Below, piece after piece: positions 1-64,000 of a stretch of DNA of 64,000 nucleotides; the stretch's first letter is position 1, and each line of letters opens with the position of its first letter. Below the pieces are notes generated by a model. The model was not told where the DNA came from. It did no database searches and was given only the letters and a program-made list of their open reading frames with translations. Position numbers and translations under genes: made by a program. The stretch comes from Negaprion brevirostris (Eukaryota): assembly GCA_030324005.1 (NCBI GenBank), contig JARDVH010000106.1, positions 50,935,474 through 50,999,473 on the forward strand. Direction: 5' to 3'.

Positions 1-3000
1 TTTAGTGGCACAGATAATTGGCCATAAAAAGAGATGAAAAGTAGCAAAAAATGTCTAATCAACAGCCAATATGTCAGATTCTTCAGTAAAAGTCAACTCC
101 TACTGAGTGCCTAAAGATTTAGAAGGGTGGCATCCTTTCATTGTTTGCATCTTCCAATATAGAAAAGTAGAAATTGGAATAAACCAGATACAGAATCCAA
201 CACAAGAATTAGAGTTCTGAACTAAGTAGGTTTGGTTGGCTTAGTTCAGTGTCCAGCTGATAGGAGCCCACGGGACAAAAAGGAAATAATTGGGCAAGAT
301 TGGCTTTAAATCAACAATCACATAAAGAATAGTTGACATGGGAACTGGAAACGTCATACTTTTACAGCAGTATATCCTTAGCCTTTCTAAAGTTGGGGTG
401 AAGGTAAGAGCAAAGAGTTTTCATCTGCTTCTGGCCATGGTACATACAGCAGCCAGAATACCTGATGCTGACATTTGACAATAAAAGTCGATATATTTCT
501 CACTCTCACGTTCAACATTTCTCAATTTGATGGAAGTTTTGTGTCTCTTACAAAAATATTCAACCCACCCCTCCATGGGAAAGCTACTTTCAGTGAGAAG
601 ACAAAATGTGTCTTGAAATTATGTTGACTCAAATTCATATGTAAACCCTTAACACTTTCCAGTTGATTTTACCTGTAGTTGTCTGAACAGAGGCATTAAC
701 TAGTTTACTGCAAGTGGCTTAATGTCCAGTTAAAACACAGGAATTTTACATGGAAACCGTACACTATTATTGCACAATATTAATTGTTTTGATTCCTGCC
801 TGAATGTAATAAAAATGGTCAATAGTTACACCAACATGAATATGTTTGATAAGTTATTACCTGAGATTTATCTTGTTATTGTCAAATTTGACGAGAGATA
901 TTTGAGGTTCTTCTGTATCTTTGAATTGCAATGTAAGCAAAATAGACATATATTTACTAGAATTTTACCACCCTGCACCCCGCCGGAATTGGTGTGGGTG
1001 AGGCTCCCAGAACAGAATTTTCCATTGGCCTCAGCCACTATTTTATGAGCCTCACCCGAGTGAGGTTGTAAAATAGCCCCCATTGAGTGAAGAATAAGGT
1101 CACACATTTGCATCACAATTGAATGGCTGCCAACAATGCTGACATGTAACAAGCTGCTTGTGGCTTATGTAACTAGAAACAAAAATACACATTGCTTCCA
1201 AAAAGGATATCATATATTCTCCTTCCCATGCCATCCTGCTAATATAATGTACCTTTACTTCCTACATAGACACTGATGTCCAATTTCAAATGGAACATTT
1301 ATCAGTTCAAAATATTCAAATATGACCCCAAGTGACTAGCAGACCTTCAAGAATAGTTCATGATCCTGATTATGATCTAGAAAAGCACAGGACTGGACTC
1401 AGCAATAATGTCTTGCCATTGCCAAGTAAACCTGCTGATGTGTGAATCAGAGTTACTTGGGCGAGACGACCAGCTCCACCACAATCATACCCTGCATGAT
1501 TTAAGGATTTTAGACAGGGAAAGGAGCAGGGAGAAGAGGCTAATGAAAAGAATGAATTGCACCAAAATGATTGAAAGGTTTTCCTTCTTTCTTTAAAAGA
1601 AAAAGCAGCAAAAGGGGTGATTAGGGTGTGAGGCACACAAACAGGAGTGAACAGAGCTCCAGCCAAATACTCTGCAAACTCATACGGATACAGTTAAGAA
1701 ATAAAGCAAGTCTTGAAACAATAACTTGTCTGAAACAGCTGAGCAAAAATAGCCTGAAGGAGGAGTGCCGAGGTAACACTGTGAGCTCCAGTTTCACAGA
1801 CAGCTCCCTCTGGTGATGAGGTGAGCACATTGTAACAGCATTTTCAAGCTATTTTCATTAGGAAATATATGGCAACATCTTTAAAGCAATTCCTGTTTTT
1901 CTTTTTAGTGCTCTACTTCTTTGATAAAGATCATTAGTTTTATTATCCTATCTAATTGCATTCTTTGCTTTAGGACTTGGCAAGCCACGTTTTTGGACAT
2001 GCCCCAAAGACACAATTTATTCTACTATATAGAAGGTCCGAGAAATGCAATGTCCAGTCACAAATTGCAATTTTACATTCTTCGCGTATAAGGATAAGGT
2101 TAAATACTAATTTGTTGCTGCTGTACCACCATCAAACTATCAATGAAGTGGATTTTCAATTAGTTACATCACCGGACAGATAGAGTATGGTCTTGGGGGA
2201 GAAAAAAAAAATCAGGATTCTATTTGTCATATGCACAATGTAAGAGAGATAAGATGATCTTAAGAGCAAAGATTTTCTGGTAATGGGGATTTGGCTGTAG
2301 AGATGTCTGTCTTTTATGCTCTCTGATCAACAGTAAATAATTGGGAGAATTTTCAGAAATAATGTTGTTGTTCTGGATTGAGTCCATACTCTGTGTACTG
2401 ATAGATTTTACACCATGTCAGGTTTGAGCCCATCTACTTTGCTGCACTATCAAAACCTTTAACTTTGTTTCACTCTGATGACGTATTACGTGCCATTTTC
2501 TAAATTAGGAATGAAAGTACGTACAAAGCAAAGGATTGGAGGGTTTGTACATGTTTCAACTTTTGTGCCAAGTACGCTGCTAGGGACCATATCAAAAAAC
2601 AGGTATCTGCTGAGTGAGCCTATTTAGCAAAGAGATAAACATAGAAACCAACAAGAACACTTGGCACTTTTTATAGTCCCTTAAACATGGTAAAATGTTC
2701 CAAGGTGTTTTATAGGAACATTATCAGTTAAACCCTGAGACAAAACAATGCAAGGACTGGTGATCAAAAGGTTAGCTAAAACGGTAGCATAAAGGAGAAG
2801 AAAAAGGTGGAGAGGTGGAAAGGTTAATGGGGAAATTCCAAGTTTAGAGTCCAGACAGTTGCAGGCACGGTCAATGTGTGGCAAAGGGCATTACAGATGC
2901 GCATAGGGCCACAACTGGAGGATCATGGGCCTTAATTTTCAGAATGGTGAGTGCTCTGCACTGACCTCAACAGGCCTGCTGTCATTTCACACTCAACTGA

Positions 3001-3489
3001 GCATTGATTGGGCAACAGGCAGGACTTCTGGAAGGAATCCCATCCATACAATTTTCCACTCTCAGAACCCACCTGGGGGAGTGTAAAACTCTGGTTATAG
3101 AGTTTGTGAAGGGTTATATAGCTGGAAGAAGTTGCAGAGATAGGATGGGTTGAACCAACAAAAGCATGTGAACACCAGAATGAAAACTGTAAATCTGAGG
3201 GATTGCTGGACCAGATGCTATATCAGTGACCGCATGGATAATGTGTGAATAGGTATTGGTACAGGTTGGTACTTTGGACAGCAGAGTTTTAAATGAATTT
3301 AACATTATCAAAGATTCAAGGTGAGAGGATGGCCAGGATATGATTGGATTGGAATACCAACAATTGGAGCTAACAAAACCATGAATGAGAGTTCAGCAAC
3401 AGATAATCAGAGATATGTGCAGAGACAGATGATATTACTGAAGTGGAAGTACATGGTGACTTTTGAACACTCTGCATCAGTAGGCAGTA

Positions 3490-3680
3490 GAAGTGGAGCC
3501 ATTGAGTATTTTTAAGGTGGATATAGATGGTTTCTTTTTAGGCAAGGGAATCAAAAGTTAGAGGATAGATGGGAATGTGGAATTCAAAACAAAAACACAT
3601 CAGATTTGAACTTATTAAATGGCTGGGCAGGCTTGGGGGAGCTTACCTCGGCTCCTAACTCGTAATTTGTATGTTTGTGT
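3490..3680 (+). mobile_element. CR1/HER1 3' end inserted in L2-like remnants (~2640-4025, minus strand)
   Basis: ggcaagggaatcaaaagtt...ttaaatggctgggcaggcttg tail matches the other HER1 tails in the window. Confidence 0.65.
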
Positions 3681-8970: not shown

Positions 8971-9117
8971 CTGCAAGAGCTTCCACCGTGTATTCAAGTC
9001 CTCTAGTTGGTTTAGATTGTACGGAGAGAGCTGGATGTCTGGTGGTTTGAACTGGCGGGCAAGGTCATTCATGTGAGTCACATTCTCTTTCAAAGGAGTG
9101 ATTTCTGCTCGGAAAGC
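8971..9117 (-). CDS. DMD: Dystrophin exon equivalent to human exon 60
   Basis: Polypyrimidine tract then ccag|GCTTTC...TTGCAG|gtgagt, 147 bp. AFRAEITPLKENVTHMNDLARQFKPPDIQLSPYNLNQLEDLNTRWKLLQ; LKENV and IQLSPYNL are dystrophin-type rather than utrophin-type. Confidence 0.96.
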
Positions 9118-24541: not shown

Positions 24542-24810
24542 CTTGACTTTTTCAATATGGTCTTGCAGTGAGTCTATCAGCAGGTCTCCCACAGGTTGCC
24601 AGGTATCTTTGATAGCCTCAGCCTGTCTCAGTTTACGGTTCAATTCATCCATTGCATCTTGTAATTCCAGGAGCCTCTCCAGGGCCTCATCTATGCGCTT
24701 TTGCCAATCAACAGAGCGAGTGCTCAACTTGTCCCACTCGACTTTTACCTCTTCGGCATGCTTCCGAATTACTCTGGCAACAGTTTGGGCATTCTCTTCT
24801 GGTGTTTTCA
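24542..24810 (-). CDS. DMD: Dystrophin exon equivalent to human exon 59
   Basis: ttcag|TGAAAACA...GTCAAG|gtaaat, 269 bp. KTPEENAQTVARVIRKHAEEVKVEWDKLSTRSVDWQKRIDEALERLLELQDAMDELNRKLRQAEAIKDTWQPVGDLLIDSLQDHIEKVK. Confidence 0.97.
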
Positions 24811-27800
24811 CTGAATAAACAGGAAGGAGAATTCTGTTAAAACACTAAAGCTCACAAAAAGAATGGGAATTACTGCAATTAGATGTGAAATTATCCCTTC
24901 TACACTTTAAAACATTTGGCCAAAAATTAGGTCATGCTTCCTAATACCTATTTCTTGGGCTTGGCATCTGTTTTTGCCTTGCACTTCTGTGAAGCAATTT
25001 AGTTAATTTTTCTCCATTCAAGACATTATAAAAACAAAGTTTTTCTTACTTGACTTCACATCGCATTCAGGAAAGAAGACAGGGTTATAAAATTCTTCAT
25101 CACAAAGAAATTATTACATTTTTAGGTGGATTATATATAGTTATATTGTAGGGTTAACAATTGCGACAGCACCATCAGTTCAAGAATTTTGCATTACAGG
25201 GTGGCATTTGGGAAGAAGTCAGCCTGCATAATATTCTATCAATTGCATGGGTTCCATCAGAGGTACCAATCAGAATTCCTAACTTTTCATCCTGTTCCAA
25301 AGAATTCTGTACCATCAAACACTAACTTTCACAATCTGCCCCATTAAATTCTGATGAGGGCTATTTCATGGATTCACAGCAACCAAACAATGCAGCACAG
25401 CTCTTCCTTGCGGCTATACAATAACCTTGCTCTTTTGCCATGCTGTTGAGCTGAACATTAGCCAATCTTTAGGATGCAGTGAGTTCTTATGATCTTCCAA
25501 AAGCATGACAAATCTTGAGGGAAACGGGTCATATTCATGTGCCACCAAATGAGTGGGTCACACAGGAATATGTGGAATGCTGTAGTAGAGCATAATCCAC
25601 TTTTCCTTCCCCAGTTTTGAAGATTACGGCTGTGAATCAAAAAACTTAAAATGTTTTATTGCAGCAGTTTTATTGCATTCAATCTTTAGAATTGAATTTA
25701 ATATTCATGGGCAAGAGAAATAAAAGGTTAATCAAGGCTCTCAGTACTGATCACTATCCAGCAATTGAAATTCGTACATGCATGGATTGGAATGAGAAAA
25801 GGACTGGGCTCAGCTGTGACACCATTTACAGTTGAATAGTTTGCCAATATCATATCCTGGATTTATCCATGAAAGTGCAGTTACTTGGGTAAATTACCAG
25901 AAGGGCTTAGTGTCAGTGGAAAGCTTAGTTGACATGCGTCAGCATTTTCAAATGAGATGGGACGAAGGATGGGCAAAAACAAAATTAAAGCATTCCCATG
26001 AAATCGACATCTCAATCATTTGCAGTGGCAAACACTGAAGCCCAATCTATCCAGTGGCCAATACAGCTGCTCTGAAATAGCTTCACTGTTTGTTGTCCAG
26101 GAATCTGACGCCAAAAATTCTCAGAGCGCAAATTTACTGAAACCTTGAGCAGTGATGATACCATCAGACAAATTGGCATGAACAAATTATTGGGCCTGAC
26201 ACCATGACAGAACTGATGAAATCCTTTTTCTATGGGAGCCAGCTGCACCAGCTGGCAAGCAGAATTGCAAGATCACATTGATGTATAAGTTGCACTTGCA
26301 AGTTTGGAGATCATTAAAATTTAACACAGAGGTAGTAGCACTTTCCTGTATCTTCCATAATGGGTAAAATTTAAAAAAACACATAACTTGCTAAAGTGTT
26401 TGAAATATAGTTTCACACTTCCAGCTTTAATGTTGCCACTTTTCCCCATCTTCTCTGAATTGTTGACTTTTGCTAACTACCTTTCCATAGACATGGGGAC
26501 ATGCCTCATATCTCAGTCACGTGGTGGCTAATCTTCATGTGCATTTTCTAATATGATGGTGAGGATTAGTATTTCATAGTTCCAGCACTTCCCTCCTTAA
26601 TGCCAGTTTAACAAAAAAAAGCAGCAGTTTTTCAGTGCATCATTGACAATCTGCTACCTATTAACACCAAATTAAGGCTCGTTTTGTGCTGTGGATTTGT
26701 ATTCCCTACAAGCTCGTTGTTAGTATTCAAAGTTATTTTACTTAGATTGCAAAGAACTGTCACAAAGGAAAGACTTATTCTATCCATCGGAGCTGCATTC
26801 AAACAAGTCCCAGAAGGAAAAGAGCAGAATGATAATTCACTGTGCCACTGAGTCCTGTTTGATCATTTTATCTTCTGCACTTGAGTTACTCTGCCAAGGG
26901 GGACGAAATAATGGGCTGCTCTCAGGCCTCTGCAATGTTATGTGATGGATGGCTAGGAGGTTCATAAGTGATGCGCCAATTGATGCTCCTTGAGTGATGG
27001 TGCTTTGGCTCCATTTATTGCTATCCAGTGATGTTCTAGCCAAGAAACCTACCATCTGGGGACTTGCAAATGTGAATCCAAAATCTATCATGTTGTGCAG
27101 AGTATTTTTTTTACACCAACTACAGCAGCAAAAATAATTTTACCAAACCATACATACCAATTCAAATAAGGAATGGCTGTTTGCTGGACAAGGTTTCTCC
27201 TTGACAGCTTGTATATGCATGAATATCAACTCTGAGATACATCAGCAAGCACTTGCTACCTCAAATGTGCAGGCACAGGTATTGAGCAAAGGCAGATGAG
27301 TATCAACAGGAAGGATTTGATGAAAAAGAGCTTGCGCTCAATTGGGATTCTTTGTGTAAGAAGTCGGATCTACACCATGGACCTAACATAAGTATTATTT
27401 TATTTGTCATGCAGTTTAATTAATTGTTTACTATTATTAACTTTGAATCTAGCACAAAATGCGTAAGGCACAATCAACAAAATATAATCTTTAGAAAGTA
27501 CAAATATTTTGTAAAGTTTTTGTTAAGCAATTGAATATTCAAATTAAATCCAAGGTGTGATAATGGTGGATTTTGTTTTGCCATTTTCAATTGATTTAAG
27601 CAAGTTTAAGATCATGAGCTGTGATAACTGGAGTATTGGGTTATCGCACAGTTTCTCAATCTCCAACAGCGGGTTTCAAATGCAATCAGAATGAAGCAAT
27701 GGAAATATCTCTTCCTAACTGCAGATGGTAAGGAACCTATGTCAGATGGATTTAGGTACTCTCAACCTAGTGTGCTTACCCCACAACAGAAACCTGTCCA

Positions 27801-28409
27801 CAATTTGCACAATGGCAAAATACTGCAGCCCCCTCTTCCCCCTCTCCCCCAGGGCACAGGAATTATGAGGCCAATTGTTTTTACCTACCATATGCCTATA
27901 TGATTTGTTAATGACCAGTTTTATGGCCAGACTAACAGAAAGCAAAGATTTGCTTGTTCCTTATGGGTTAGTGCCACATCAGGTCTATGAGAAAATAAAA
28001 CTTGACAACAGGATTATCAGGAGTATTTTATTTGGTGCGGTGTTTTAAAAACAGCCACAGCTCCAGGTGTTTTTAATGGTTTTGGAGTCTCTCTCACCAT
28101 TTTTATGAAATCTCACTGTTTTTAATGGTCCTTAGAGGTAAACACAAAAGAATAGAAACCAACTAAGCCTGCTGCTATGCAGAACCCTTCTTTAAAAAAT
28201 GTGGTGTAGCAAGGATAGCAAATTATTTAATCCTCTGTATTTGAGTCTACTGATAACACAAAGCCTCATCTCATCATTCAGAAATCTGCAAGGCAGCATA
28301 ACTGTCCCCATGTGNNNNNNNNNNNNNNNNNNNNNNNNNNNNNNNNNNNNNNNNNNNNNNNNNNNNNNNNNNNNNNNNNNNNNNNNNNNNNNNNNNNNNN
28401 NNNNNNNNN

Positions 28410-28530
28410 NNNNNNNNNNNNNNNNNNNNNNNNNNNNNNNNNNNNNNNNNNNNNNNNNNNNNNNNNNNNNNNNNNNNNNNNNNNNNNNNNNNNNNNNNNN
28501 NNNNNNNNNNNNNNNNNNNCGCTTGAAAGT
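28410..28530 (-). CDS. DMD: Dystrophin exon 58 equivalent, mostly hidden in an assembly gap (only 28520-28530 visible)
   Basis: Acceptor tatactttcag|ACT TTC AAG CG then Ns, i.e. TFKR versus human AFKR(ELK). Correct phase 0 and correct position between exons 57 and 59. The lower coordinate is inferred from the human 121 bp length. Confidence 0.75.
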
Positions 28531-29169
28531 CTGAAAGTATATAGCACATTCGAACTCAATTCCCACAAGGACTAAAATAAGTATTGAAATTAAGTCATCA
28601 GTGAGAGAAACACTATTCAACCCTCAGGAATTATACCATTACAAATGTCATACATTCCTCTCTGTGGCTCAGCACCTTAATGTGGTGCAGAGGCATGTGC
28701 ACTCTGATAATCACTTAACAATGTTATTGGGATCTCTTGCTATTGGTACGATCTTCCATCATAGCCAGACAATGGCCCGGCACGGCAGGTGAAGAACAGT
28801 TATGTTACATCTCCGGCTGTGAAAATGGAAGAAGGCTCAGCGGCAAGGTAGCCTTGGTCTTTATGATGTAATATGTCACTGAAATTTAGCTACTAAATCT
28901 ATCAAGATCATGTGATCAATGGTGATGCCCCAAGTCCTCATGTAAACAAAGTCACATGCAGACTTCTACCAGGTCAATTTGCCAAGTTCCGCAGAGATGT
29001 AGAATTGTCAATTGGGACAGGATTGTGAACCTGGGAGTCCCTACTCAAGCATCTGCACAGAGGTGGCAGATGCATGAAGGTTGCTGGTTATGAGTGTTGG
29101 GACAGAGTTGCCTTTGAGCAGTTGCCTCTGTGACTGAACAGTCTTCCTCAAGATACTCTTTGCTTATGC

Positions 29170-31330
29170 CAAATGGGGAGATATCCTAAAAACAATCTGT
29201 CCCACTTGCTCCTAGTGGTGAATGGCACTCTGCAGGATCACCATTTTTGTGGTCAAAGAAAGAAGACTCTAAGTTTTGCGATTCAGAATGTTAGAACACG
29301 CATGGATCATCTCAAGAGTAACCATCCAGAAAGAACAACTGCAATTGGATCANNNNNNNNNNNNNNNNNNNNNNNNNNNNNNNNNNNNNNNNNNNNNNNN
29401 NNNNNNNNNNNNNNNNNNNNNNNNNNNNNNNGTTCAGGTGCGGGACAGGATACACATTTTACTGTAAAGGAAAGACTAACAGTGACCCTCATTGGAAGCA
29501 TTGCCAGACACCACAATTATATAAATGAAAGGATCATGACACTTCAGCTCAGCCATAATCAAAACGCCACCTCCATCAGCACTTATGTCCTACCCTGACT
29601 CTTGACTCTGATGAAGACTTTAAGGAACATTTCTACTCTGACCTTGAAAAAGTCCTCACTGCCATCCCTAAATAAGAAAACATCATTCTTCAGGGGGACT
29701 TTAATGTCAGGATTGGCCATCAATCTGTTGTCCGGAGCAGAATGGCTGAGAAAAAGCGGGTGGGAAAAGCCATTGCAAATTGTTTCCTCCTGTTAATAAA
29801 GTGGGGTTCAGTATGGCTTCATTATAACAAACACCTTCTTCCACGAGAAGGTAAAATACAGAACCACATGGAGGCATCCTAGTTCAAAACATTGGCAATT
29901 CTTGGATTATGTCATCGTTCAGGTCACAGGTCTAAGTAATGAATGAATCATTTGATCCATCAATAGATGCCTCCTGGACAGATCACAGACTTGTCCAACT
30001 GGTGATGAACATCTCCCGAGCACTAAGACATTACAAGGCCCAAAAGTCAAAGAGAAAGAAGATAAATGTTTCAGCACTAAAGTAACTCAGCCAAAGAAAG
30101 TAATTCCAAGTGCAGTCCTTGACCAACCTAGAACATCTTCACACATCCAACTCAATTTGAGAATGGTAACAGCACATGATGTCAGCTGTACTAGATTCCT
30201 GTGCCCAGACCTTTGGGGTCGAGCATCTCTAACACCATGAGTGGTTCAATGAAAACAAATCTGAAATACATGACTCCAAGAACAAGGACAAGTGATTATA
30301 TTGCCTGACAGAATAAGGCAAAGTCGCAACTCAAGGCGGCAAAAATGCAACACCTCNNNNNNNNNNNNNNNNNNNNNNNNNNNNNNNNNNNNNNNNNNNN
30401 NNNNNNNNNNNNNNNNNNNNNNNNNNNNNNNNNNNNNNNNNNNNNNNNNNNNNNNNNNTTTTGAAACCATTAGCATAATCTATAGACCAAGGTCAAATAT
30501 CCCTTAGCTCACAGGATAGTGTTTCTTTTCTTCACAGTGACAATTGCCACCAATTGCTGGATAGAATATTTTTGTCTTACAGATTTGTGAGGATAAGACT
30601 CTCCCTGCCATGCCCACCCAAACATCTCCCCCGACTGCAGGAATGCAAAAATTATAACTATCTGCAAAGAGGGTGATAAATGGTGTTGTGGAGACTATTG
30701 GGGCATTTCCCTCTGGTCATAGCAGGGAAAATTCTGACATGCATTCTTCTGAATCACCTATTTCCTGTGGCTGAGGAAATCATACCAGAGACACAGTACA
30801 GCTTCAGACTTTCCAGAGAAACCTCTGATGTTGTCTTTGTCATCAGATAAATCCAAGGATTGCAATCTTCAAACTGACCATCGTGAGGTTCTGTGGATTG
30901 TGCTCCAAAGATTTGGATGCCCAAGGAACCTCATTACAATCCTCAAATGATGATATGACTACAACTATCTTGAATGAAAGATCTGAAAGAGATGCCTTCA
31001 AAAATCTGGACCAGGATCAAGCAAGGCAGTGTGATTGCCCCCATCACAATCTACCTGATACTGTCTACTCACTTCATCAAAGATAAACTGCCCTCTGCTG
31101 TCAGCATTGAGCACCAACTAAATGGGAAAGCTCTAACCTCAGTCACCTCCATGCCAAAACCAAACCGACCACCATAGACGTATGTGTGGATGACTGCAGT
31201 GTCATTTGCCCTTTGCAAAAGATTTGCAAGCCACACTTGATCACTTCAATTCTGCATAGAATAAAATCAGCTTGTCCTTGAATATTGCCAAAACCTAAAT
31301 TCATACATCAACATCCAGTCACACCAAAAA
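29170..31330 (+). mobile_element. Decayed RTE-clade LINE (endonuclease + RT)
   Basis: TTWRHPSSKHWQFLDYVIVQ (~29860-29920); YWGISL then AGKILTCILLNHLFPVAEEIIPETQYSFRLSR (~30695-30820); IKQGSVIAP (~31020). Heavily disrupted, two N-gaps. Confidence 0.85.
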
Positions 31331-32932
31331 TCAATGGGCTTTTGGTTGGGCCGCCAAATCTTCCACAATGAGTCCTGCCAAGACAGGGCAGAAAATCCCA
31401 GTCCCTGTCAGCCAAATATTCAACCTTCCACAAACGTTGAAAGAGAGGTTCTGCAATATGCTGAGCTGAGCACTTCGATGACTGAATGGTAACCATAAGG
31501 CTAGCTTTCAATTTCAGATTTTATTAATTGAAGATAAATGTCACCAGCTGTCATAATGGGATATGAACACAGGCTCCCCACAGCATTCGCCTTGATCTCT
31601 GGATTGCTAGTCCAGTCATGTTAATACTGCATCATCTTGTCCCTCGTACTTCAGCAAATAACTATGCCAGTGCATTATTGGTGTAAACTCAAGTTTCTTG
31701 CATGCTTTGGAGTTATGTAAACAAAAGGCAGAGATTTATAACTTGAAGAGATATAAACAATTAAGGATATTTGTGTGAATCAATATTTTCATGCAAGTCC
31801 AGTGTAAATCAGCAACACAAAATCTCTTTGCAATAAACCATGTTGGTCTTGTATCACCCTTACCCTGAAAAGTTCTAGGGCATTCTTGCCAACATCTTTA
31901 GATAGGTCAAGAAGAAAAGGTAGGAGGAGCTTAATATTCAGGAAAACTCCAGCCAAAGTAAGATAAGGTCCAGCTGTCAGAATTCAGAACACTACTTTTC
32001 ATCAAGTTTCAACAAAGACTCCCCATTGAGATTATGAAAGCTACTGACAATTCTAGTCCATAATTCTTTCAGCCAATTCACTGCTCAATTAGGCAGTTAA
32101 CACTCATGTTTCTACCTCATAATCACATAAAACTTCTGTGTATTTAAATTGTGTGTTAAGACCCAAACTGACACCAAAGCATGTTGATTGAGAATATCTT
32201 CTCAAGGCAGAATCGCTTTGTGTCGTTGTTGGGACAAGCCTTCACGATCTGGATTCAGGCTATTTGATAACTGTAGACTTGGTGCAAGACTGCTTTACAC
32301 TCCCTCCATAGTTGTTGTGTGAATATATCCTTGGGCAATGTTTCTTTAAAGGATTCAGCTGCATTGATTGTTATAGTTTCAATTTCATACATAATCCTGC
32401 GGCCAGGAGAAAAAATTATTTTGAGTTATCCCAGCTTTATCCAAATTGTCTACCATTGTGGCTTAATTAAATACATGAAACAAAAAAAAATTGCTTTTCC
32501 ATGATTGTAAGATGATTCTGAAAATTAAACCATGCATGTCAACAAAGATACATTGTTCATTTTGGGCTAAAGTGCTAATGTAATGTGTTGCACACTTCCC
32601 AGCATCACTCCAGAACGTGTGAAGGTTAAATTTCGAATCTTGTAAATGAAACCCAAACGTGTTTTTCATCATCTAGCACAGCATCCCTACAAGTTGCCAT
32701 TTGTTATCCTGCAGTGATTAATTTTACGCTGAATGAAGTTGGCAAGCTAAGCACATTTTGTTATTTGCAGTGATCAATTCATAATCTAACTAAGAAGGCT
32801 ATATATTCCTCAAGGGATGGAAGAGGTGCCATTTGTCTGGCAACACCAATCAGTCCTTGCAAGCAGATATGGAGTTGAAATATTCTTTTACGACAGAAGT
32901 TTAAAGCAGTGAAAATATCAATTTTTCCTTAC

Positions 32933-33089
32933 ACGATGAACATCATTCTGCTGTTGTACAGCAGGAACATCGCCACCAATAGGTCTTTGCCTTGTCAGTT
33001 CATCGTTCTTCAAATTCAACCATGCCAGTAAGTCCTGGAGAGAAATGTGTAGTCGCTTCCACTGCTCGGCACTCGTCTCCAGACAGGCT
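32933..33089 (-). CDS. DMD: Dystrophin exon equivalent to human exon 57
   Basis: ttttag|AGCCTGT...CATCGT|gtaagg, 157 bp. (R)[52 protein letters not shown]; the split codon AG+A joins exon 56 in frame. Confidence 0.96.
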
Positions 33090-44280: not shown

Positions 44281-45236
44281 GTCAAAGAAACCTGAACACA
44301 GAATCATTGGATGGTAATTGCAAATGATTGCAATGTCATGTGAGTGGATTCCTGAAATACATCCACTAACATATCAGCTGCAATACTGCCAGAATGCTGA
44401 GCTGAGAATTATGAATATAAACAACACAATGCTGTTTGTTACACAGTGTTGCATTGTTTTCCAGACAATAACAACACTGTCGAGTGATTTCCAGTGGGAG
44501 CGAGGGCAGCAGAACGAACCCCAAATCCAGCAGTTCAGTGTGAATGCTTCGTGCATTAACTTTCCGCAAAGACTGGAAAATTTATCATTAGTTTTTCCAA
44601 GAGACACTTCCTGTATCAAGCAAAGAAGAAGCCCACTAAAACAGTTACTTTTCTTGGTACAAACATTACTCCTGTGCAGTGATGGGACTGAGTTTTTCCT
44701 TAATGTTACTGCACCTGCAACACTTGAAACCAGTTTACAGACTCATTGGAGAATATTAAATGCCAAAATATTGTGACATACAGTGAAATGGAAGAACCAT
44801 AATCATAATGGCTTTTCCTCTTTTCTGCACTGTGGTGAGCACTGTAATGAAGAAATTAAGACTCCTTCCCCCATTCTCTTTCCATTTAGTTCTTTTTCCC
44901 CTCCCTCTTGTATCCTGAAGTTTATTCCTGAGTTAGCTGTATTTCTAGGGATGTCAGGCAATAGTTTCTCCAAGGACCTTTGAACGTGAGCCTGAGAGGT
45001 GAGCATCAGGTGGTCTATAATCCTTAGTATCACACCACACCGCACATCACATTTACCGAACTGCCATCAGGGGAAATAGTGCATCCAAGGTTTTATCTTA
45101 TAAATTGTAACACCACCGTGGATTCCTAATAATTTTGAAATAACATTTTGAGGCAGAAATGCTGAACTTTTACCTTTACACAGGAATCAAAAGCAAAGCT
45201 TAGTCTTTCCAGGGGAGCGCAGGTGAAAGGTCTTAC

Positions 45237-45409
45237 CTAATATTTAGCGATTTTTTCCTGAGCTCAGTCCAATGCAAGTTCATGTCATCAAGACGCCTCT
45301 GCAACAAAACCCCATCCTCTGCACCTTCCAGACCTTTGAGTATTTTCTGTCCATTCTCATCCAAGTTATGGTAAGTGTCAGTGTGAGCTTCAATTTCTGT
45401 CTGAAGATC
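45237..45409 (-). CDS. DMD: Dystrophin exon equivalent to human exon 56 (spectrin-repeat rod)
   Basis: Minus strand caacag|GATCTTCAG...AATATTAG|gtaaga, 173 bp. Translates DLQTEIEAHTDTYHNLDENGQKILKGLEGAEDGVLLQRRLDDMNLHWTELRKKSLNIR, matching human exon 56 (DLQGEIEAHTDVYHNLDENSQKIL...KKSLNIR) in sequence, size and phase. Confidence 0.96.
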
Positions 45410-45598
45410 CTGTTGAAGAAGGCAAAAAAGACATTGCTTTTATATTTCTTGATTTGTCATAAATGGGCTTTCACGGTCAGAACAATCATTGAACTGTGCG
45501 TGGCTTCACATTTTATTCAATTTAATAATAAATTGGAAATAAAATTGACAACAAAATAAAACAAAACAGAAAAAAAATGCATTCCTGACACCACTGAC

Positions 45599-45628
45599 CT
45601 TTACGTAATATGTTTTCCTTTGCAGCAT
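45599..45628 (-). CDS. DMD: Coding part of the Dp116-like alternative first exon (MLQRKTYYVK)
   Basis: aaaATGCTGCAAAGGAAAACATATTACGTAAAG|gtcagt: phase-0 donor 189 bp upstream of the phase-0 exon 56 acceptor. 8/10 identical to the human Dp116 N-terminus MLHRKTYHVK (recalled). Confidence 0.9.
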
Positions 45629-45769
45629 TTTTAATCTAAACCTTGGAAGGATGCAAAGACTTTGAGGTGCCTGCATTGCGCCCAGGATAGTTTGTTTGAG
45701 AAAGCGCAGATCCTTGTCCACTTTCTGCTCAGTAAAGTGTGGCTGGATAAGAACCAGCCTTAACATTCA

Positions 45770-46200
45770 ATATTGCATAACCAACCCAGAGGATACAATA
45801 CCATCATTCAGGGCAGTGGCCTTTCAGCAACACAACAGTTGAATAGACCAATTAGCTTTGTTTTTTATAGAAATAAAAAAGCATCACAGTTCTCTTTAAA
45901 TTTTAAAGGGTTCTGGCATGTGAACATTCCTCATACAGATGCCACGCTCCCAATTTGCAAATAGTTATGCACATCCCAGCATACTAACCCACCTACAGGC
46001 TCGATTGGGCCAACTGCACTATACTGAGCGAGCTTTTTGCTTTTCTGTACATCGGGCAATTGTTTTCTTTTCATCCTCACGATCCTTCCTACCTGCATCT
46101 TCTCAAAGAAGGAAATATAAGGTGAGAGTATCTATGTAGGTAAACTCCGATATCCCAAATTGGCTGGACTGTCAACACTGGACAATTCTTAAGTGAGAGA
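45770..46200 (-). promoter_or_regulatory. Putative internal Dp116 promoter / 5' leader
   Basis: Apparently repeat-free stretch directly upstream of the Dp116-like exon. TATAAAA on the minus strand at 45869-45863, CCAAT near 46004-46008, ACAAT/ATTGT Sox-type cores near 45795, 46060 and 46180. The motifs are short; the call rests mainly on position. Confidence 0.5.
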
Positions 46201-47805
46201 CAGTTCACTCATGAGACAAATAGTTGAAACATCTATTACTGAATCATTAACATAACTAAAAACAACAAAACATGCCTGCTACATTGGCTACTGCAGACAA
46301 ATACATGCTATATCTCAAAATAAGATAGAAGATGCTGAAATACAAAGCATATCCATCAGCAAATGCAACTATTGCTCCAAACACAATTCCTCAGATAATG
46401 AAGCAGTCTATGTCAATTTGCTGGAAAACATAGACACTATCAAGGCTTGTACTGATAAATGGCAAGCAAATTAAAAACACACAGGTCCCAGACAAAAATC
46501 ATCACCAAAAGGAAGTGTCAAAGCACTTTCCTTTGTCGTTCAATGGCAATGCCATTGCTAAATCTTCCAACCTCAACATCCTGGTGGTCACCACTACCCA
46601 GAATTTAAATTGGAATAACGATGTAAATACTGTGATTATCACAATTCGGGGGAATGAGTAAAGTGTGAAATCACAACCATCTTAGGACTCAGTTGTCAGG
46701 GAGCCCAGCTGCAAAAGCATAGTGATTCAAGTGCACTGGTCCCTTGTGAAGGAGTGATTTTATGCATACGGCTGAGATGATGGATAAGCAGAAGTCTATC
46801 TATTACCTACAAATGCAGGAAGCTTCTCTCAACCTGTACATGGAGATTTGTGAATGAACAGACATTTTAAATGTTACAAACCCAAAATAGGAGCGGCAAA
46901 GATATTAATATTTAGGAGCCCAAGCTTTCAAAGAGATACTTGAAGACAATAGAGAACTAAGATGAAAGCAGAAAGGTATTTATGAAAATGAATTTTCAGC
47001 TACAGTTCATTGTTGTGGAGGCCAAGCCCTAGTGAAAGCCAACTCCTGTGTTTTGGGGTATATGGAAAATCTGCAATTTTAATTGAAGAAAGCAACTCAG
47101 TCTTGGGTTAGGAGAATATCTGAACTGAGACACAGTTTGTTTTGGATCTCCCTTGGGAAAAAATGCATCAGCGTGGATTAGCTCTGAGAAGTCTTGGATT
47201 GTGCTTTTGTTTAAAGTGAAAGCAATTTCTCAGTTTGGGTAATATTTCCTGGATTTTGTGGTCAACAATCTATAGATGTTGTTGCCAAAAAGACAGTTTT
47301 ATTATGCACCTTTTATAAAGCACTCATTCCTGACCACAAACTCATATTAGTGACATTACTGATGGCATAGAATCACAGAATTCCTACTGTGCAGAAGGAG
47401 GCCATTCGACCCTTTGAGTCTGCACCGATTCTCCAACAGCGCATCCCACCCAGGCCCTATACCCATAACCCCACATATTTTCCCCTCTAATTCTCTCAAC
47501 CCATACATTTTGGGATAATAAGGGGTAATATATTAAGAGCAAGAAAATGACCAGGAAAAGACTCATTTGAGACCAAAGGGGCAATCTGTGCTTGGAGCCA
47601 GAGGGCTTTTTCATCTTTATTCATTAAGGAAAATGCCATTATAGCTGGAGACAGTAATGTTCTAAAGCACATCTTAGATGTATTAGTGGACAATCAGGCG
47701 CATGAACCCCAGGGTCTGATGAGATGTATCCCAGGCTACTATAGGAAGGAACAGAGGAGATTGCAGGAATCCTGACAGCGATTTTTAAACCTTTGCTGGC
47801 CACAG

Positions 47806-62405: not shown

Positions 62406-64000
62406 TGTTGGTCTGGCACTCATGCAATATACTCAATGACTCCTTAACTTCACCATTGATCACTAGTTTTAAATTTTGTCAAAATCTTTCTGAAATATAT
62501 AGTGAAAATTACTCTCTCTTTGTCATTATTCCAGTAATGCAGTCCAAATCACCAGCAGATTAGTTGAGCGTGACATGCCCATTTTTCTTTCCTCTGTGCA
62601 GTACACTTGTCTGTATTAAATTTCATCTGTCATTATTCTGCCCACTTACATATTTTATCCAGCTCATATTGTAATTTTTCAGCTGCCTCGTTTGAGTTAT
62701 TTTTATTCTTTTATGGGCTGTGAACACCGCTGGCGGGGCCAGCATTTATTATCCATCCCTAATTGCCCTTGAATTGAGTGTTAGGCCATTTCAGAGGGTA
62801 CCTAANNNNNNNNNNATTAGACTTGCAATTTTTACTGAAATTCAAATTTCACCATATGCCATGGTGGGATTTGATTTGAATCCAGGTCCCAAGGTCTCCA
62901 GATTACTAGTCCATTGTGTCACCACCTCTCCTGAGTCCACAAGCTTGTCCAATTTGACCAGTCTGCTTTGGGTTTCTGAGTCTGTCACTGAATAAGTAAG
63001 AAGTCCAAAAATCATCCCTAGGGCATTCCATTCAGTGCTACTCCTCACCTTGTCATAATTAGTAAAATGAATACATATTTTCCTCTCCCCTTCAAATAAT
63101 TTCCAAGATTTACCCTGAACACGGTGGGCATACGTGGAAAAGATTAGTTCATGTTGCTTTGGCACAAAGGTGAAGTGAAACACTAAACCATTCAGAAATT
63201 TGTTCAGTGCCAAGGTTGATTGACAACTTCCAGTTCATTAGTACTGTGAACCATTTTTTAAGCCTCTCAATCTAGAATTCACGGCTCCCATATTGACAAG
63301 TAGCGTGCAAGGGAATGCATGGGGAAAACTATGACGGTGACCTTGAGACAATTCATATCCCAGTGCACGAGGAACAATCTTGTCTCTCCTTGCCAACAAG
63401 GAAACCTGAGAAATAAACCAAGCATTCTACACTGCGGCCCCTATGTGCCCATCCCAGGATTCTGCTCCCTGCAGGATTTAGCTAACACAGGGTCTCTCTC
63501 CTTCCCACCTTCTCACTCGGGCCTTAGTTTAAAATTGCAGATTGATTGTTGATGGTAACAAGGAATCATATTCTTTGTCCTGCTCATCTGCTCACAAGAA
63601 AAGTATAGGAACACAGCAGCAGGAAGCAGGATCAGAATGTAGAAGTGAGTCCTGTTATTTAAATGCACCTTACCCCTTAGCCTGGTTTCTGCCTGGTGGG
63701 GGCAATTGAAATCAGGCCAGTGGGTTACAAATTGAGTTGAATCTTAGAAAGGCAGTTAGTCCTTCCAGCAAGACACTGCCTATTTAGATGTCTGGAGGAC
63801 AGAATTAACATGGTAAAATCAACATTCTAACTGGGTACACCATTAGTATTGATTCCACTGTGATTTGATTTACAATCAGGCCATAAGTCTGAGGCACAAT
63901 TTATTCTTCAAATAGACTTTCCTATTACAATGCTCAGATAGTGTTAAGAGAGGTCTCAAAGGAGAAAATAAATGAAAACACCTGCTCTTCAGCACTGGCT

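Follow-up and report, generated by a model that had tools for sequence, protein, structure and literature searches.

Dp116 is a short product of the dystrophin (DMD) gene that starts from its own first exon, S1, under the control of a promoter located in intron 55. It has been described as conserved across all gnathostomes, its first-exon peptide having been followed from mammals to zebrafish, where the transcript was confirmed by RT-PCR, and the intron-55 promoter has been traced to a time before the dystrophin/utrophin duplication (Jin et al. 2007, PMC1790709). The text of that study gives cartilaginous-fish evidence for Dp71 and DRP2 and apparently none for Dp116, although the alignment in its Additional File 1 may include a genomic prediction. 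Human S1 contains an in-frame ATG 14 codons above the Dp116 start, and a longer product, Dp118, has been proposed to begin there, although it is unconfirmed at the protein level (Matsuo et al. 2017, PMC5664101). A paralogous short isoform, G-utrophin (or Up113), also starts in intron 55 and joins exon 56, but its host is utrophin and its leader has 48 residues (PMC5664101). A literature search that had most subscription papers outside its scope returned no direct report of Dp116 in sharks or rays, of Dp118 beyond the PMC5664101 proposal, of SOX10 control of the promoter or of another intron-55 promoter.

The window analyzed here, that is, the whole stretch of 64,000 nucleotides from Negaprion brevirostris, contains four dystrophin exons:

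45237 to 45409, minus strand: dystrophin exon 56 (173 nt), which transcript contigs join to exons 55 and 57 and, in a single run, to another upstream exon.
32933 to 33089, minus strand: dystrophin exon 57 (157 nt), whose start matches the downstream loose ends of contigs in 4/4 runs.
24542 to 24810, minus strand: dystrophin exon 59 (269 nt), with an open frame and AG/GT ends.
8971 to 9117, minus strand: dystrophin exon 60 (147 nt), with an open frame and AG/GT ends.

These exons follow one another in order on the minus strand, all with open frames and AG/GT ends, and the host gene is identified as dystrophin from best matches and protein names, with no utrophin or DRP2 outgroup in the comparison. 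None of the 120 exon-56 homologues listed bears the name of utrophin or DRP2, and the top one is whale-shark dystrophin (93%). Over the 248 amino acids of exons 56, 57, 59 and 60, identity is 95.2% to the cloudy catshark, 93.5% to the whale shark and 83.5% to the elephant shark, and it falls to 72-74% for sturgeon, coelacanth, newt and beaver. By these values the window belongs with the elasmobranchs. Exons 61-79 are beyond the window. In the interval from exon 57 to exon 59 (24811-32932) no exon 58 was detected, although it is required by the phases, because exon 57 ends in phase 0 and exon 59 starts in phase 1; it probably falls in an assembly gap, since the interval contains three runs of N (28315-28519, 29353-29431 and 30357-30458). 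Neither exon 54 nor exon 55 was found in the 18 kb upstream of S1, up to position 64000, and intron 55 must therefore exceed 18.5 kb, in agreement with the large promoter-bearing introns of dystrophin. Exon 55 is outside the window, yet it is joined to exon 56 in the contigs of 4/4 runs, which puts S1 in intron 55.

The S1 counterpart and the elements around it are the following:

45599 to 45628, minus strand: last 10 codons, from the Dp116-type start at ATG 45628; 10/10 residues are identical in whale shark and 8/10 in beaver, coelacanth, tuatara and duck.
45599 to 45676, minus strand: coding part of the S1 counterpart, 26 codons from ATG 45676 (Dp118-type) to the donor, supported by tblastn and by a chance test.
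45593 to 45598, minus strand: phase-0 splice donor GTCAGT, agreeing with the consensus at 8/9 positions and with a pyrimidine at +3.
45410 to 45598, minus strand: predicted intron between S1 and exon 56 (189 nt), with an acceptor made of a pyrimidine tract and CAG at 45410.
45677 to 45766, minus strand: a further 30 open codons up to an in-frame ATG in weak context at 45766, likely leader or promoter DNA.
45848 to 45869, minus strand: candidate promoter motifs from a regex scan, namely TATAAAA at 45869, a SOX-type AACAAAG at 45862 and ATTGG at 45852.

Translation of the minus strand from 45628 to 45599 gives exactly MLQRKTYYVK, as the preliminary description had read it, and the donor (AAG|GTCAGT), the distance of 189 nt to exon 56 and the agreement in phase were also as described there. 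The phase is 0, and the frame is open from S1 into exon 56. The extent given in that description (45599-45628) is real sequence, but it covers only the last 10 codons, and the frame runs up to ATG 45676, which is 16 codons upstream of ATG 45628 and gives an N-terminus of 26 residues. Both ATGs have a purine at -3. A donor score of 8/9 is also reached by 17 minus-strand sites in the window. The pyrimidine at +3 of the S1 donor (45593-45598) is of a kind found in fewer than 4% of vertebrate donors and linked to alternatively spliced exons (Jin et al. 2007, PMC1790709).

The closest known counterpart is isoform X2 of the RefSeq dystrophin of the whale shark, Rhincodon typus (XP_048458782.1, P0002), a protein of 990 amino acids that was the top match and whose domains are spectrin, WW, two EF-hands and ZZ. 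In this predicted model, which does not bear a Dp116 label, a leader of 26 residues is joined to exon 56; 24/26 residues are identical in the window, including the last 10, and two are substituted. Accordingly, tblastn with this isoform hits 45599-45676 with 24/26 identities (E 5.6e-10), and with the beaver isoform the hit on S1 reaches 68% over 22 amino acids (E 1.6e-4). An S1-type peptide directly precedes exon 56 in 31/120 of the exon-56 homologues listed, the carriers including whale shark, sturgeons, coelacanth, frogs, reptiles, birds and mammals, and in 12/31 of them (counted by hand) it has the longer leader starting with MQ. The presence of the peptide in the whale shark and in bony vertebrates bears out the initial identification of the sequence as a Dp116-type exon and the claim that the peptide is older than the split between cartilaginous and bony fishes; as an evolutionary conclusion the latter is not new, having been in print since Jin et al. 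2007 (PMC1790709). In the sturgeon models P0100 and P0114 the S1 peptide is two residues longer, as if sturgeons had another donor, located 6 nt downstream.

Among cartilaginous fishes, S1 was found in 1/7 of the proteins with exon 56, the whale shark one, and not in the five elephant-shark models or the cloudy-catshark model, so that its apparent conservation across chondrichthyans draws on two species. The warning that automated annotation could miss this exon does not apply to the whale shark, where S1 opens the RefSeq isoform X2, but it may hold for the elephant shark (0/5 exon-56 models). Three of the elephant-shark (Callorhinchus milii) models (P0008, P0135 and P0136) start just before exon 56 with unrelated short leaders. 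Either these models are wrong, or in holocephalans S1 has been lost or has diverged. Queried with residues 1-42 of the whale-shark isoform, a homologue search matched only that isoform, and no relative of exon 56 was found in metagenome contigs. When 1.84 billion representatives were searched by HMMER with the S1 frame of 30 residues, there was a single match, an unnamed repetitive protein that was judged spurious.

Compared with human Dp116 (exon S1, NM_004014), the shark exon is alike in its position before exon 56, its phase 0, 8/10 residues of the decapeptide and the second in-frame ATG upstream. It differs in the length of the intron before exon 56 (189 nt versus 755 bp in human, PMC5664101), in the length of the leader (26 residues versus 24), in having one cysteine instead of two, and in a third, weak in-frame ATG at 45766 that is not a feature of human Dp116/Dp118. 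The shark leader keeps M-Q, Q-x-x-C and PRFxLK of the bony-vertebrate leader and has a two-residue insertion; it has no second cysteine, and at the kinase site it reads LPRF, without the serine of the SPRF of bony vertebrates (SARF in human). ATG 45676 thereby corresponds to the start that has been proposed for human Dp118. The first exon of G-utrophin (Up113) was discarded as an identity, because the host exons and the peptide of the window match dystrophin instead.

The transcript evidence comes from contigs of four runs (X1, X2, X6 and X11), guessed to be RNA from unlabelled tissue, that were mapped on 44900-46200. They were taken from 16 runs guessed to be RNA among 22, the other six being of DNA type. 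Exon 56 is covered exactly end to end in 4/4 runs, and the upstream loose ends of these contigs correspond, by hand translation and comparison with the catshark protein, to the end of exon 55. The ends of this coverage, together with the loose ends in exons 55 and 57, confirm the acceptor at 45409 and indicate that the contigs are spliced. Neither S1 nor the 45599 to 45409 joint is in any contig of the four runs, which, as contigs show presence and not absence, is no evidence either way; the junction between S1 and exon 56 is present in the predicted whale-shark model.

We favor, with a probability of roughly 0.88, the reading that 45676-45599 is an orthologous S1 first exon, which is transcribed from an intron-55 promoter internal to the gene and gives, through a phase-0 junction with exon 56, a Dp116/Dp118-type scaffold of about 990 residues. 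In such a scheme, the promoter would fire upstream of 45676 and the short S1 exon would be spliced in phase 0 to exon 56. Provided that the 5' end lies upstream of it, scanning ribosomes would probably start at ATG 45676, giving the 26-residue leader, or would leak to ATG 45628. The predicted product, of about 990 residues, would have no actin-binding domain and little of the rod. Its spectrin part (the last repeats) and its WW, EF-hand and ZZ domains would be retained, as they are in the whale-shark model, and so would the C-terminal region. By analogy with mammals, its role in non-muscle cells would be to scaffold the dystroglycan/syntrophin/dystrobrevin complex at the membrane. As for the putative promoter, TATA-like words occur at 0.53 per kb on the minus strand and one per 800 bp is about what chance would give, so the TATA-, SOX- and CCAAT-like words at 45848-45869, being near chance frequency, prove nothing.

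One objection to this reading is that intronic DNA happens to resemble a known peptide. It was addressed with a profile built from 6 S1 peptides, all different and none from a shark, which was scanned across the window in its six frames and across 40 dinucleotide shuffles. With the 10-residue core, which is short, the exon scores 42, the next-best site 27 and the shuffle maximum is 38, so that the decapeptide by itself is only modestly above the shuffle maximum; it is the longer match that makes the case firm, since with 16 residues the exon scores 65.5 (next-best site 29, shuffle maximum 38.5) and with 24 residues 72.5 (next-best site 27, shuffle maximum about 36), and 0/40 shuffles reach the exon at any of the three lengths. 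As the peptide is, in addition, correctly placed as to strand, position and phase, followed by a donor and matched by an independent whale-shark model, chance likeness can be considered refuted. It is also improbable that S1 is a silent relic in this lineage and that the short isoform comes from another intron-55 exon, as might be thought from the X2 contig that joins another upstream exon to the exon-56 acceptor and from the lack of S1 in the elephant-shark models. A relic would hardly be expected to keep an intact frame and donor, with 24/26 residues shared with whale shark. Moreover, the last 16 residues are identical at 13/16 positions in beaver, 13/16 in tuatara, 12/16 in coelacanth and 11/16 in duck, and set against beaver (13/16 in S1, 178/248 in the flanking coding exons) the S1 peptide appears to be conserved at least as well as the adjoining constitutive exons. 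From this peptide conservation alone we infer that S1 is under selection, as had been claimed.

A similarly small probability is given to the use of the S1 orthologue as an internal cassette exon of 144 nt, with an acceptor CAG at 45743 and phase 0-0, after exon 55 or another upstream exon. Some bird and hamster predictions (P0009, P0012 and P0091) do model S1 as an internal exon, and in the window the CAG at 45743 is followed by 48 codons open in frame to the S1 donor, but its tract is weak (11/18 pyrimidines), and the S1 exon cloned from human is a first exon (PMC5664101). The whale-shark model begins at the methionine of ATG 45676, and peptide conservation ends at that same codon: a conserved coding leader above it was rejected because the likeness to the frames of birds and hamster is no better than chance, with scores as high in 2960-3626 of 5000 random frames, and conserved coding sequence thus most likely begins at ATG 45676.

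Compact myelin is a gnathostome trait, a point on which the literature search returned nothing. S1 might have arisen with it, or have been kept for it, in the first jawed vertebrates, a link at which the preliminary description hinted. Mammalian Dp116 is indeed mainly a Schwann-cell isoform, within the dystroglycan complex (PMC5664101). [quoted passage not shown] Hence a myelin origin is unlikely, and the link that had been drawn is unsupported, because the position of the intron-55 promoter appears older than jawed vertebrates and Dp116 is also present in non-Schwann cells.

Along with the S1-type first exon that we favor, a second upstream exon may be joined to exon 56. In run X2, a contig of 97 nt (depth 3.9, low enough that it may be an error) joins 67 letters that are not S1 to exactly position 45409, and its exon 56 is identical to that of the window. 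Of these letters, 30 read in phase 0 as a stop-free peptide of 10 residues, which, aligned from the junction with BLOSUM62, has a score of 26 with the N-terminus of the newt (Pleurodeles waltl) RefSeq dystrophin isoform X8 (XP_069060860.1, P0099), the next best of 46 distinct upstream 10-mers scoring 4. The likeness was noticed post hoc, and when 30,000 random stop-free 10-mers of the window were compared with all 46, a score of 26 was attained by 14. The newt isoform has before exon 56 a 17-residue leader that resembles the X2 exon and is unrelated to S1, so that this type of exon is represented by one predicted model and one contig. A search with the first 40 newt residues returned 6 proteins, the newt one and five matching through exon 56 only, with no third species. 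The X2 exon was not found in the window at up to 3 mismatches and would therefore lie beyond 64000 or within an N gap. A DNA look-alike at 46855-46884 (22/30) was discarded, as it has an in-frame stop and no donor, and 22 is reached in the window by 5/300 shuffled patterns. Back-splicing or exon skipping found no support as an origin of the X2 letters: none of their three frames matches the end of a dystrophin exon, in a protein set without full-length dystrophin. Since two independent lineages show a similar peptide at the same junction, a real second first exon is plausible. It is conceivable, although we rate it somewhat below even odds, that the jawed-vertebrate ancestor had two intron-55 starts for short dystrophins: S1, with a Dp118-type ancestral product, and an undescribed short exon farther upstream, which gives the same scaffold an aromatic-rich N-terminus and is kept in at least an elasmobranch and a newt.

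The S1 exon described here is not new, as it was expected from the literature and is already in the whale-shark gene model. It provides direct cartilaginous-fish sequence for the conservation inferred in 2007, a contribution of modest value, to which it adds a Dp118-type start that is conserved and a clue to another first exon in intron 55. Sharks and mammals share the upstream ATG and roughly half of the additional residues. This favors the proposal, itself untested, that Dp118 and not Dp116 is what the exon really makes, and it bears on transgenic studies that used the shorter protein. Should the second exon of intron 55 prove real and conserved, it would represent an additional ancient dystrophin isoform, worth seeking in intron 55 of human and mouse, a region that lies at the edge of the exon 45-55 deletion hotspot.
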